DNA of 64,000 nt from Eledone cirrhosa (taxonomy: Eukaryota), in contig OZ024749.1 in the NCBI GenBank assembly GCA_964016885.1, positions 25,482,001 through 25,546,000 on the forward strand, in the 5' to 3' direction. This document shows positions 10,535 to 43,082 of the stretch, in pieces (the first letter of the stretch is position 1; each line of letters begins with the position of its first letter). The position numbers were made by a program, and so were the translations under genes. The notes below the pieces were generated by a model, which saw nothing but the letters and a program-made list of their open reading frames with translations, made no database searches and had not been told where the DNA came from.

Positions 10535-10738
10535 AAAATGTTTGACCCAGACGGCAGAGCTCAAGCCGTTTCGACAGCTATTTTTAGACTCAAATAGCTG
10601 GCCAGAAATAGCCATCGAAACAACTTGAGCTCTGCCGTCGGGGTCAAACATTTTCCTATTACCCACTCTACTACCCTAAGTATTGAGTACTCTGGTGCGT
10701 TATGGTCCATCTGGTTCCTTACCACACCTCCTTCTTTA
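10535..10738. mobile_element. Fold-back pLTR remnant of PLE family P
   Basis: Homologous to 11333-11530, 27410-27604, 39537-39727, 41115-41195 and 42875-43082. Confidence 0.75.
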
Positions 10739-11019
10739 TATATATATATATATATATACATATATAAAGAAAGAGAGAGAGCGAGAGAGAGAGAGAGAGA
10801 GAGAGAGAGAGAGAGAGAGAGAGAGAGAGAGAGAGAGAGAGGGAGAGAGAGAGAAATGAACACACAAAGTCGTGTGTACAGAATTACATGGGGGTGAAAT
10901 CCCCTATGGTGCGATGTATATAATCTACGAAAAAACAGGAAATAGTGACTAAAATGTACTAACAATTTCAATAACTATTAATTTGGACTTTATTTTATAT
11001 ATTTTATATATATGTATCA

Positions 11020-11220
11020 GGTTTAATATAGAAATGTCTTCTACAGGACTAGAAATGCTTCATTCAAAAGGAATAGTCAAGGCTTTCGTAATGATTTTTG
11101 AATGAATAAATTATAATCCTATAGAAGCCATTTCTATATTAAACATGATGTTTAGACTCTAGTAATGTATTGAGTATATCATTAACTGCGGTTACACTAG
11201 ATTGAATCCGGGACTCACAC
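11020..11220. repeat. Fold-back interspersed repeat, also at 49995-50165
   Basis: Inverted AATATAGAAAT...ATTTCTATATT; shared 3' end GATTGAATCCGGGA before a (CA)/(TA) tract. Confidence 0.55.
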
Positions 11221-11332
11221 ACACATATATATATATATATATGGATAGTACTAAATGTAAATACGTTTCTACAAGGATATTTATGCATAGTGTGTGTATA
11301 TGTATATATATATATATATATATATATATATA

Positions 11333-11530
11333 ACGAAGGAAATGTGGTAAGAAACCAGGTGGACCATAACGCACCAAAGTACTCAATACTTAGGGTAGTA
11401 GAGTGGGTAATAGGAACAAGTAAGACCCCGACGGCTGAGCTAATTCTGGACTAAATGAAAATTCATTTAGTCCAGAATTAACCGTCGGAACGGCTTGAGC
11501 TCAGCCGTCGGGGTCTTACTGGTTCCTATA
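11333..11530. mobile_element. Fold-back pLTR remnant of PLE family P
   Basis: Inversion centre at about 11460; both ends on (TA)n. Confidence 0.75.
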
Positions 11531-13896
11531 TATATATATATATATATATATATATATATATATATATATATGTATATATATAATTATAAAATGTGGAGGA
11601 GCACACGAGTTGGAATATATATATATATATATGTAAATAGGGAGAAAATGACGATTACAGACGGTAATAGACAATTATTAAATATATAAATAAATAAATA
11701 AATGCCATTGTTAATTAATAAATAAATTAACTTCTACCTTAACACTTCACACAAAGTAAAATATATTGTTTTAAACATTTTCTAACCCCCCAAAAAAGAG
11801 AGAAAGCATCGATTCTTTGCTTAAACTTCAATCTGTTATTTTAATAAATTTATATATATATATATATATATATATATATATATATATATATATATATATA
11901 TATAAATAAATTTATTAAAATAACGGGATCTTCTGAAACTAACAAAGTCAATCTGTAAACGCAGAACTATACCTTCCTCCATATATATATATATATATAT
12001 ATATACATATATATATATGGAGGAAGGTATAGTTCACTTGAAGCATTGTGTAATGAGGTATAAACGTTTGTATATGTATTTACTCGGGTAAAAGTATAAG
12101 GAAAAAAATGAAATCCAAAATGCAACTGGAGATTTTTTAAGAAAATTTATTTGCATCCTTTACCGGCTTCACAGTTCTTATACTTTTCAAAAGTAGAATT
12201 GAGATGGAGTGTTTGTGGATTTTCTCACATATATATATATGTGTGTGTGTGTGTGCGTGTGTATGTGTGTGTGCGTGTATGTGTGTGCGTATGAGTGTGT
12301 GTGTGTGTGTGTGTCTATATATACATATATGAACAAGAAGTGTAAGTCAACTGGATAAAATTAGCTTCGTTTATTCATATTCGCTGCTAATTTATACATT
12401 CTTAAATTTATAAATTTAATTTATAATAAATTGGAGTGAAATAGGTGGTGCGTGTGTTTCTTATTGGCAACATGACCGTCCCAAAGCATAACAATATCGG
12501 TTTCAACACACGTTTTAAGATAAAGAATCTTGCTAAACAAATTCAGAAACGAAATATATATATATAAATATATATACATACATGTTTTGTGTATATTTCT
12601 GTTGGTACTAAAAATATTCGACGCTAAGATGTCAAATAAACCAAAATTTTCAATTTTCCTGATAATGTTATCAAAGAACAAATAGAGAGAGCTAATGGAA
12701 TCACCTTCAAAGAACTCAAATGACTCGATATTGGTAAATTATTGATTTCTAGCACTTTATTGTATTATAGCAGGATTTGACTTTCTTTTGTATCTCATTC
12801 ATTATAGATTCCTGAGGCACTGACACACACATATATGCACCGAACACATTCTTCAGACACGCACACACGCTGCTTTATGTATCTATATGTATACACACAC
12901 ACACACATATTTATATATCTATATGTATATATATGTATATATATATATATATATATATATATATATATATATATATATATATATATATATATATATATAT
13001 ATATATATATATATATATATATATATATGTATATATTTATATATATATATATATATGTATATATATATATATATATATATATATATATATATATATATAT
13101 ATATATATGTATATATATATATATATATATATATATATATATATGTATATATATATATATATATATACATATATATGTATTCATATATATATATATATAT
13201 AATGTATAATATATATATGTATATATATATATATATATATATATATATATATATATGTATATATACTTGTATGTATATATATATATTTGTATATGTAAAT
13301 ATATCTATCTATCTATCTATATATATATACATATATATATATATATTTGTATATGTAAGTGTATATATATATATATATATATATATATATATATATATAA
13401 TCAATACGAGAAGAAAACTCTATGTAAATGTATATATTTTTTTACATGCATATACAGACACACACATGCACACACACATATATATATAGATGTGTTTGTG
13501 TGTGTGCTTATATATCAATACAAGCATATATATATATATATATATATATATATATATATATATATATATATATATATATATGTATGTGTGTGTGTGTGTG
13601 TGTGTTTTCATGTCTAAATATGTGTGTTTTTGTTTGAACTTCTGACGCACACACGTATATTTAGAGCTATCAATATTTTCATATCTTCGTGAAATCGAGG
13701 CAGTTTTTAACGTTACAATATAGAAACTCTGTACGTCCATTAAGGCAACATTAAGGATTCATTATGATTCATAAAATTCTCTACAAATAATAGAAATTCG
13801 CAGGTGTATTTCTCTGATAATATACTTATGAAATTAAGAAAGGTATAATTTATTATTTGTATTATTATTACATTTTATGGTAATAATTACGAGAGA

Positions 13897-13967
13897 AAGA
13901 AGAAGAAGAAGAAGAAGAAGAAGAAGAAGAAGAAGAAGAAGAAGAAGAAGAAGAAGAAGAAGAAGAA
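13897..13967. repeat. (GAA)n microsatellite
   Basis: Direct reading. Confidence 0.95.
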
Positions 13968-40778: not shown

Positions 40779-40823
40779 GCTTACAATTGTTTCATCCAAA
40801 CCGAGGTTTGGGGTCTTCGGAGC
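40779..40823 (-). ncRNA. Minimal type-I hammerhead, CCGAAGA core variant, within repeat 40740-41095
   Basis: Minus strand: GCT-CCGAAGA-CC-CCAAAC ctcg GTTTGG-AT-GAAA-CAATTG-TA-AGC. Confidence 0.75.
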
Positions 40824-41331
40824 AATTTTTCAATGATTGTTTACATACATGACCTCCTTTCCAACACAAAAGACATACAGAAACATATGTATATATCGAT
40901 GCACAGTGGGGTGACATCCATTATAATATTTATGCATGGCAATTTAAATTCAAAAATTCAAATCATATTAAAACAAAATTAAAGTTAAAATACAACATCG
41001 GCAGTTTACGAAGATAATGCAAGAGGATAGTTTGTTAGTCATTTGAAGTAGTTAGTGCATGCAATAGTTACACTTGGGGAATGCACGTGTGTCTTATATA
41101 TATATATACATATAACAAAAGGTGTTTGGTAAGAAAGCAGGTGGACCATAACCCACCAGAGGGCTCGATACTTGGGCTAGTAGAGTGGGTAATAATAATC
41201 TAGATCCGAATATATCCATCTATATATATATATATGAAGTAATTCCGTCGGAAAAGTCCAGGAAAAAAGAGTGCTCTATGTAGGTAAGAGAGCTTAATAG
41301 TTATGTAATAAACAACATAAGGCAATTATTC

Positions 41332-41386
41332 CATTTACCAGTGGTTTCTTAAAAGCAAAAAATGTTTGCTTTCAATCATCAGAATG
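41332..41386 (-). ncRNA. Type-I hammerhead, canonical core (left arm of palindrome 41297-41545)
   Basis: Minus strand: CATT-CTGATGA-TTGAAAGCAAA cattt TTTGCTTTTAA-GAAA-CC act GG-TA-AATG. Confidence 0.8.
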
Positions 41387-41456
41387 AAAAAATCCTGGTC
41401 TGTTTATTGAATTTGGATTTTAAAATCAAAATTCAAAGAACAGACCAGGATTTTTT

Positions 41457-41510
41457 CATTCTGATGATTGAAAACAAAAATGTTTGCTTTTAAGAAACCA
41501 CTGGTAAATG
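41457..41510 (+). ncRNA. Type-I hammerhead, canonical core (right arm of palindrome 41297-41545)
   Basis: CATT-CTGATGA-TTGAAAACAAA aatg TTTGCTTTTAA-GAAA-CC act GG-TA-AATG. Confidence 0.8.
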
Positions 41511-42874
41511 GAATAATTGCCTTATGTTATTTATTACATAACTATATATATATATATATTTATATATATATATATATATATATATATATATACAATAGTA
41601 TGTATAATTACATACGATAGTATGTATATATATTTATTTATTTATTTGTATGTATATATATATATATATATATATATATATATATATATATATATATATA
41701 TATATATATATATATATATATATATATACATATATATATATGTGCATTTAAATTTAAACACAACAGTACTATAGATCGTGGTTAAATATTCTATCGCACT
41801 TTGAAATGCGCTGAAAACATCAGAATATTTCTGGGCGCCTCTCCAAGACTGATGTGTGGTCTGGCGAGTGTTCAGTATCAAGCTTATATCCAACGTAAAT
41901 CCTGTGCCAATATTTGTCATTAATTATCAGACTTTGGCAATTAGAATTTCGAAAGTCTTACGGAGTTGTAAGAATGAAACAAGATTCTGATTAAATGGAA
42001 AGAGGTTAAATGGAAGAAATGAGAAGAGAATATGCTAGGAATCGAGGTCAACGATTTGAACGAAAATCAGTTTCGTTATATATGAATTTCTTTTTATCTA
42101 TACAATATATTTATATATATATAAATATATACATACACACATATATATATATATATATATATATATATATATATATATATATATATATATATATATATAT
42201 ATTTGTGTGTGTGTGTGTGTAATTGTGTGTGTGTGTGTGTATATATATGTATATACATACATACACACACGCACGTATATATATATATATATATATATAT
42301 ACAAGATGATTGAATACGTATGTAGAAATTTAGATATATCGAAAACGATTTTCGTTCGAAACGATATATTTAATATATATATATATATATATATATATAT
42401 ACATTCATACATATATATGTATGAATGTGTATATATATTATTTATGTGAGTATATGTCAGTGTGTATATATCACTATGTGTAGTGTGTTTGTGCGGTGCG
42501 TGTATTGAAAGTGTGCTTATCTTACCCTTCTACCACTCTGCCTGTGAAATACACAGAGGAGTTGGACTTTCTTTTGATTATTTTTCTCTAATTCTAGAAT
42601 AGCAAACGTCAACAAATAATGTGGCAACGTAAATAAGCTGACTTATTTTCAATTCAGACACACACATAAACCCACACACACATACACACTCACATGTATA
42701 TATATCTATATATCTATGTGTGTGTGTGAGTGTGTGTTTGAGTGTGTGTGTGTGTGTATATATATATACATATACACATATATATATATACTTATACTTA
42801 TATAAATATATATATATATATGTATATATATACTTGTATATATATATATATATATATATATATATATATATATA

Positions 42875-43082
42875 TAGGAACCAGTAAGACCCCGACAGCT
42901 GAGCTCAAGCCGTTTCGACGGCTAATTCTGGACTAAACTAATAGTCCAGAATTAGCCGTCGAAACGGCTTGAGCTCAGCTGTCGGGGTCTTACTGGTTCC
43001 TACTACCCACTCTACTACCTCAAGTATTGAGTACTTTGGTGCGTTATGGTCCACCTGGTTCCTTACCACATTTCCTTCGTTA
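42875..43082. mobile_element. Fold-back pLTR remnant of PLE family P
   Basis: Perfect inverted repeat 42875-43002 with a 6-nt loop at 42936-42941. Confidence 0.8.

Follow-up and report, generated by a model that had tools for sequence, protein, structure and literature searches.

The stretch analysed here, called the window below, is 64,000 nucleotides of Eledone cirrhosa DNA (assembly GCA_964016885.1, contig OZ024749.1, positions 25,482,001 to 25,546,000 of the forward strand). It holds several insertions of family P, a hammerhead-bearing repeat which on its sequence is the 3' end of a young Penelope-like element (PLE) of the Hydra clade. Positions in the window are counted from its first base, and bases of the element from the predicted hammerhead cut, +1 being the first base 3' of it. 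The original prediction, made from the window alone, named four fold-backs with centres at 10596, 11460, 27546 and 42938, and all four were found there, each in (TA)n and each made of a long arm and an arm about 80 bp shorter; their junctions differ among all four, in line with the different spacers that had been claimed. The stub at 10531..10738 (+ strand, older subfamily) starts with the inverted short arm (10531-10590, +19 to -41), followed by a filler of 11 nt whose first base is C (10591-10601) and the tail arm (10602-10738, -38 to +99). The stub at 42874..43082 (+ strand) belongs to the youngest subfamily and has a short arm (42874-42937, +20 to about -44), a 4-nt filler and a tail arm (42942-43082, about -42 to +99), the last with 99% identity to an intact unit. 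On the - strand, the stub at 27410..27604 has its tail arm at 27410-27548 (to about -40) and its short arm at 27548-27604 (from about -37 to +20), joined at a microhomology of 2 nt. In the stub at 11331..11529 the tail arm is on the - strand and the short arm on the + strand, and both extend to the stem II loop, about -48 to -52. All four stubs had been described as keeping the 3' half of the ribozyme, which fails for this last one, since an internal deletion of about 17 nt in its tail arm removes the GAAA and the 5' strand of stem III.

An older, un-inverted copy lies at 39536..39745 (- strand, -106 to +99, 75% identity to the young unit). It contains a whole type I hammerhead at about 39628-39727 and thereby the 5' half missing from the stubs, as reported earlier for 39632-39727. 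A tail-only insertion is found at 41113..41194 (- strand, +18 to +99). The fold-back at about 6205 had been said to behave like the stubs, but it is of a different hammerhead family, R (5931..6338): its tail arm (5931-6229, - strand) passes through the entire stem II and reaches the catalytic core, and its short arm (6230-6338) ends within the stem II loop.

The core boxes and the three helices of a type I hammerhead were identified in family P, with a U3-A8 core, the GAAA and the UC cut, so the predicted ribozyme is there; Rfam gave no hammerhead match on an intact family P copy. Stem II is 54 nt long (-77 to -24) with its loop near -48, and stem III is a full 6-bp helix. In 11 natural copies the pairing of the helices is 96%, 78% and 92%, with weak covariation; stem II is conserved, and three of its base pairs have changes on both sides. 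The description of the core as decayed applies only to the 39632 copy, which has a further change at position 9, and not to the family, as young long copies read UUGAGAA, the U3-A8 variant. Three loci of one older subfamily (L090, L030, L231) have C3 together with A8, a mismatch that may reduce cleavage.

The host genome is 3.0 Gb in size and contains 26,177 exact matches to a 26-mer of the family P tail. Long copies, arranged as tandem units of 3,531 bp, extend into a 3' region of 1.1 kb and an intact frame with some 780 codons. The encoded protein has 2,049 homologues and is 98-100% identical across 125 scored matches. At L127 the open frame is 780 codons long with reverse transcriptase (RT) motifs and a VIY..YIG core; a Pfam search of the family P open reading frame (ORF) matched no family. 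The RT motifs and the C-terminal GIY-YIG are those of endonuclease-positive (EN+) PLEs, and so is the architecture, with pseudo-long terminal repeats (pLTRs) in partial tandems, inverted copies and a tail at one end (+99 as against +20). The PLE origin proposed for the insertions is thus borne out. For the clade, motifs were compared with the description and the alignment rows of the Hydra clade (Craig et al. 2021, PMC8557442; here, as for the other papers cited, the accessible part of the text). By eye, the translation has DKT, a CxCX5C linker, no CCHH, and CxxC and CxH motifs placed around a conserved E and N, and nearly all termini are flanked by TA, the target preference of the Hydra clade; an RWR stands where that clade has an RWK-like motif. 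The Neptune clade, our first guess, needs a CX2-5CxxC linker and CCHH and was rejected in the motif check. In L127:4268-4457 no stop interrupts the frame between +2, just after the ribozyme cut, and the first ATG 64 codons later, and this stretch includes the two predicted RT start sites. Copies of another PLE family, whose C-terminal GIY-YIG differs, were seen at L119 and L120, within a few kb of family P copies.

To see where the arms end, we anchored the sampling on the tail, because a query starting at the fold-back centre is biased, and curated by hand the arm ends in the first 88 of 100 listed matches. The loci from the centre-started genome query (L001-L030) were left out of these counts and kept only in the tally of 106 junctions. 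The zone from -47 to -33, in the 3' strand of stem II, received 103 of the 157 arm ends, the stem base (-24 to -32) received 10, and the interval -48 to -77, which includes the 5' strand of stem II, none. Among the 88 tail arms, 50 had their 5' end in -47 to -33, 12 in -32 to -4, 4 at the cut, 14 downstream of +4 and 8 beyond -86, with none in -48 to -86; for the partner arms, 53 of 69 mapped ends were in the same zone. The strongest peak is at A(-41)/G(-40), with lesser ones at A(-45) and G(-35) and no peak at the stem base. Genome-wide, a 22-mer at -35 to -14 has 35,869 exact matches as compared to 3,621 for a 24-mer at -74 to -51, a tenfold drop, and one junction pattern alone has 4,882 matches. 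An assembly artefact is made less likely by contigs from DNA runs, which may come from the assembly's own sample: depth again steps near -40, and the ends at +20 and +99 are again flanked by TA. A search of RNA runs was uninformative, with a single contig on the stretch from one run.

The clustering is far beyond chance, and the centres are not random relative to stem II. Of the statement that all family P fold-backs flip in stem II, a strong hot spot overlapping the stem stands, and the word "all" does not: only 45 of the 74 paired insertions have the two ends inside the zone, the inversion point of long copies can be anywhere along 3.4 kb, and a further class of junctions sits at the ribozyme cut. 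The insertions are independent, as had been proposed, with 83 distinct junction strings among the 106 and no single shared one; 42 junctions have 1-4 nt of microhomology, 22 are blunt and 42 have fillers, several of which are slippage repeats. A junction of -41 with -35 was seen repeatedly, in more than one subfamily and in either orientation (e.g. L056, L062, L081, L085, L099). At L135:7771-9901 (G000:C1, about 91,489,200-91,491,300) a long family P arm terminates in a head-to-tail array with at least 39 copies of a 55-bp piece from its own ORF, and shorter repeats were seen at other junctions, with 11 nt (L005, L015) and 224 nt (L138); such repeats look like the product of recurrent realignment at the end of a template, or of satellite growth at a later time.

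The class at the cut comprises 179 fold-backs of the young subfamily centred near +1. Among the first 50 of them, sorted by hand, 12 were blunt +1/+1 joints, 9 had a single A or T between the +1 ends, and only 3 clearly ran upstream, by 3-6 nt. Lone arms, also checked by hand, ended exactly at +1 in 33 of 44 cases. Self-cleaved RNA would thus seem to serve as a template in vivo.

It is likely that the centres mark the 5' end of the element RNA, which would be a predicted capped start in most copies and the ribozyme cut in a minority. By the usual TATA and initiator consensus, an octamer resembling a TATA box has its first base 29 nt above -41, and A(-41) and A(-45) are both within initiator-like hexamers. 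Family Q served as the control for this reading. Its long copies have a CCAAT box followed by TATAAATA, a perfect TATA box, and its 1,242 fold-back junctions turn at an A 30 nt below TATAAATA or at the next base; none of the first 50 junctions, read by hand, runs more than 1 nt past this A. The Q boundary lies outside stem II, 6 nt upstream of the hammerhead core, so that each arm retains the whole core and stem II. In one copy of family R, TATAAATA stands 31 nt above a TCAGTT directly before the core, and the longer R arms, in the few copies available, stop near the core. That centres fall outside stem II in other families of the same genome speaks against the stalling and snap-back of the original prediction.

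Another sign of an RNA 5' end is an untemplated base. Counts from fold-back junctions are confounded by the partner arm and by slippage fillers, and the tally was therefore made by hand on arms joined straight to (TA)n at unique loci, among the first listed matches. An untemplated C on the cDNA end was found in 20 of 42 arms at the boundary A of family Q and in 15 of 57 arms at -41/-40 of family P, as compared to 2 of 33 at the ribozyme cut (Fisher p = 8e-5 for Q and 0.024 for P). The extra C is the pattern expected if a cap has been copied; an untemplated G is a recognised mark of cap copying in L1 and SVA insertions, and L1 shares this sign with family P (PMC3287187); PMC10620060 was found to contain no passage on the cap. 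Transcription of Penelope starts within the pLTR (PMC2377424), and a TATA-initiator pair has been noted in a rotifer pLTR. The family Q motif also occurs every ~1.07 kb at G000:C1:83,679,810-83,689,530, in a tandem array, perhaps a satellite of the retrozyme kind, and its genome counts are skewed between the strands, 3,822 as against 1,618.

The outer ends of the family P insertions are fixed at +99 and +19/20, each at TA, with a few exceptions to the usual pairing: +20/+20 at L244, +99/+99 at L046 and a lone +20 arm at L250. The (TA)n target, the opposite-facing arms with these fixed ends, the sharp boundaries (-41/-40 and -45, and +1) and the joining scars (0-2 nt of microhomology, short fillers or slippage repeats) can be read directly from the genome. 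We think it probable that the stubs result from two-ended priming of a Hydra-clade PLE at a (TA)n target, with two fixed sites on the RNA, run-off at the RNA 5' end and head-to-head joining. The element protein would nick both strands of (TA)n, and each 3' end would serve as a primer for RT at either of two UA sites, +99 or +19/20; each RT would copy to the 5' end of the RNA, and the cDNA ends would be joined head to head. In tandem arrays the priming sites would recur at the pLTR-ORF junction, just below the promoter, and priming there would give cDNAs of 60-140 nt that end at the capped start. Because priming sites occur also just downstream of the promoter, most events would yield stubs. 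Priming at the 3' copy of the sites would instead give long, randomly truncated arms, the familiar long inverted copies, and read-through RNA cut by the ribozyme would give the ends at +1. Long arms are found in head-to-head pairs in 58 of 100 listed matches, though only about one arm in ten is long, which implies that the two arms share a template class; both are likely templated by the same RNA or the same master locus. The overlap of stem II with the family P boundary would be explained by the predicted start lying inside the stem.

The original prediction explained the inverted arm in another way, by an RT stalling in stem II and a cDNA snapping back on its own hairpin. One cDNA would fold there and copy back to +19, and later central deletions would make the arms unequal. 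Self-priming has indeed been proposed from palindromic PLE junctions (PMC3846280), subfamily variants match between the arms of an insertion (93-99 of 100 at five sites), the long pairs L129, L131 and L230 are near-symmetric, some fillers are reverse copies of an arm, and the 11460 copy is centred on the loop. A snap-back arm, however, can contain only what the first strand contains. In 19 of 74 pairs, or in 15 when the ambiguous L036, L050, L090 and L105 are set aside, the arm with the short outer end nevertheless extends 10 nt or more beyond the 5' end of the tail arm; at L112 one arm ends at +12 and the other at -581. Of 23 long head-to-head regions read by hand, 11 have a +20 arm that exceeds the tail arm by over 100 nt and 7 have the tail arm as the longer one, with 1 equal, 1 with +20 at both ends and 3 unclear. 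Folding on the hairpin also requires that the cDNA copies the 5' strand of stem II, and no sampled arm ends in that strand. Snap-back would need deletions of up to kilobases in one arm only (L112, L232, L238, L127-128), and it leaves the fixed +19/20 end at TA, the +20/+20 and lone +20 insertions, the junctions without 5'-strand sequence, the +1 class and the extra C without explanation. We therefore regard it as quite improbable as the source of the inverted arm.

A variant keeps the two-ended priming but has a re-formed hairpin or a bound protein halt or dislodge both RTs within the 3' strand of stem II, on an RNA that is in fact longer. The family P boundary just short of the predicted loop, and the conservation of stem II with its three pairs changed on both sides, would fit this, and a common ribonucleoprotein fold could shorten both arms together. 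We find it unlikely, as ends at the stem base are few (10 of 157), family Q turns outside stem II at 30 nt from its TATA box and with the extra C, and family R arms cross a long stem II. That the stubs are a family of miniature inverted-repeat transposable elements (MITEs), or a non-autonomous family re-mobilised from a few fold-back masters, would agree with a copy number in the tens of thousands and with junction strings that recur up to 8 times among the 106. The great majority of the junctions are nevertheless distinct, the same junction is found in different subfamilies and both orientations, and identity to the 3' end of intact RT-encoding units is up to 100%. Where a MITE or DNA transposon would have symmetric terminal inverted repeats and one shared interior, these insertions have asymmetric ends and variable junctions, and we consider such an origin very improbable.

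Several points weigh against two-ended priming with run-off at the RNA 5' end. The start site and the cap are inferred from genomic sequence, and the TATA-like box of family P is off-consensus, variable between subfamilies and unrecognisable in the 39632 copy. Families U, V and W, with few copies, have initiator-like sites and no TATA box 30 nt above their apparent boundaries. RNA structure may contribute to both boundaries, since only 3-7 nt separate that of P from the loop predicted for stem II and that of Q coincides with the 5' base of stem I. The cap tallies are limited to the first listed matches, and for family P taken alone the excess of C is weak (C, G and T = 11, 6 and 5 against equal odds, p = 0.11). 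The peak at -35 is left without explanation, the 11460 copy and a few others extend to -47 to -52, and the long pairs were picked for having two long arms. To these can be added the subfamily variants shared between the arms of one stub, the few near-symmetric long pairs and the fact that self-priming is already proposed in print.

We lean, with some caution, towards a wider conclusion, that EN+ PLEs normally insert by two-ended priming at two fixed sites on the RNA, which would explain their inverted pLTR and one-sided tail. The stubs would then be a fossil map of the 5' end of each family's RNA. In family P the capped start would lie inside the hammerhead, so that transcripts from the promoter cannot cleave themselves and read-through RNA can. 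This would also imply that the genome holds evidence for in vivo cleavage by a U3-A8 hammerhead and for the use of the cleaved RNA as a template.

In L1 elements the second primer anneals upstream at a site that varies, and its segment has no overlap with the other; family P has fixed starts 80 nt from each other, its arms overlap, and the inversion is what usually results. Twin priming of L1 is similar in that RT extends the two DNA ends before they are joined, which gives a 5' inversion (10.1101/2024.12.14.628481). The Poseidon element PAc of Anolis, studied in vitro (Frangieh et al. 2024, PMC11167929), has parts that match the proposed route: two internal RT starts that bound the tail and lie downstream of the hammerhead cut, an AT-rich target, nicking and extension of both strands, and a predicted dimer. 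The accessible part of that paper leaves the inverted copies unexplained, and it reports no RNA reads ending at the cut and uncleaved RNA as the main template, in contrast to the 179 cut-centred junctions of family P; it also describes a product of this Poseidon-clade protein that shortens as the RNA 5' end is truncated. PLE hammerheads are, as in family P, of type I in the pLTR with U3-A8 covariation, a long helix II and motif pairs on opposite strands (Cervera and De la Pena 2014, PMC4209133); family P differs in its 54-nt stem II holding a predicted promoter and in its full 6-bp stem III. Evidence for in vivo cleavage by PLE hammerheads is absent according to the accessible part of the same paper.

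Family P belongs to a known clade, and an inverted copy and a tail were already known. The Hydra clade of EN+ PLEs (PMC8557442) has the same C-terminal GIY-YIG, DKT, CxCX5C linker, lack of CCHH, and CxxC and CxH motifs, and also (TA)n targeting, a hammerhead, partial tandems and an adjoining inverted 5'-truncated copy with the tail at one end. The unit is longer in family P, 3.5 kb as compared to less than 3 kb for most Hydra elements, and so is the tail, 80 bp against typically 30-40 bp, and RWR replaces RWK. Most family P copies are stubs with a fixed 5' boundary, and the accessible part of the Hydra description mentions no such stubs. We found no paper on two-ended priming or RNA-end run-off for PLE inversions in a literature search that had most subscription papers and some supplements outside it, and the accessible part of a retrozyme paper (10.64898/2026.07.22.740005) does not address inversion.

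The origin of the inverted pLTR and one-sided tail of PLEs is named as an open question in both PMC8557442 and PMC11167929. Thousands of independent junctions from a family that is still intact allow predictions at the level of single bases, namely two priming sites, RNA starts at -41 and -45, and a cut at +1. A caution follows for annotation, as hairpins of this kind should be read as dead-end retro-insertions rather than as MITEs or precursors of microRNAs. The Rfam search of the window gave, among the rows shown, only microsatellite-driven matches of miRNA type.

The window contains other insertions of related kind. An old fold-back akin to family Q, our control family, is at 11016..11149. 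At least eight more belong to other hammerhead-like families (287-476, 2288-2868, 3203-3531, 19583-19821, 20241-20546, 26008-26321, 26836-27240 and 41300-41542), several of them with a whole core inside each arm. Frames of a non-LTR retrotransposon were also observed, at 51813-54263 (- strand) and 55080-55598, with an endonuclease-like part of 353 aa, an RT of 462 aa and an ORF1-like frame upstream.

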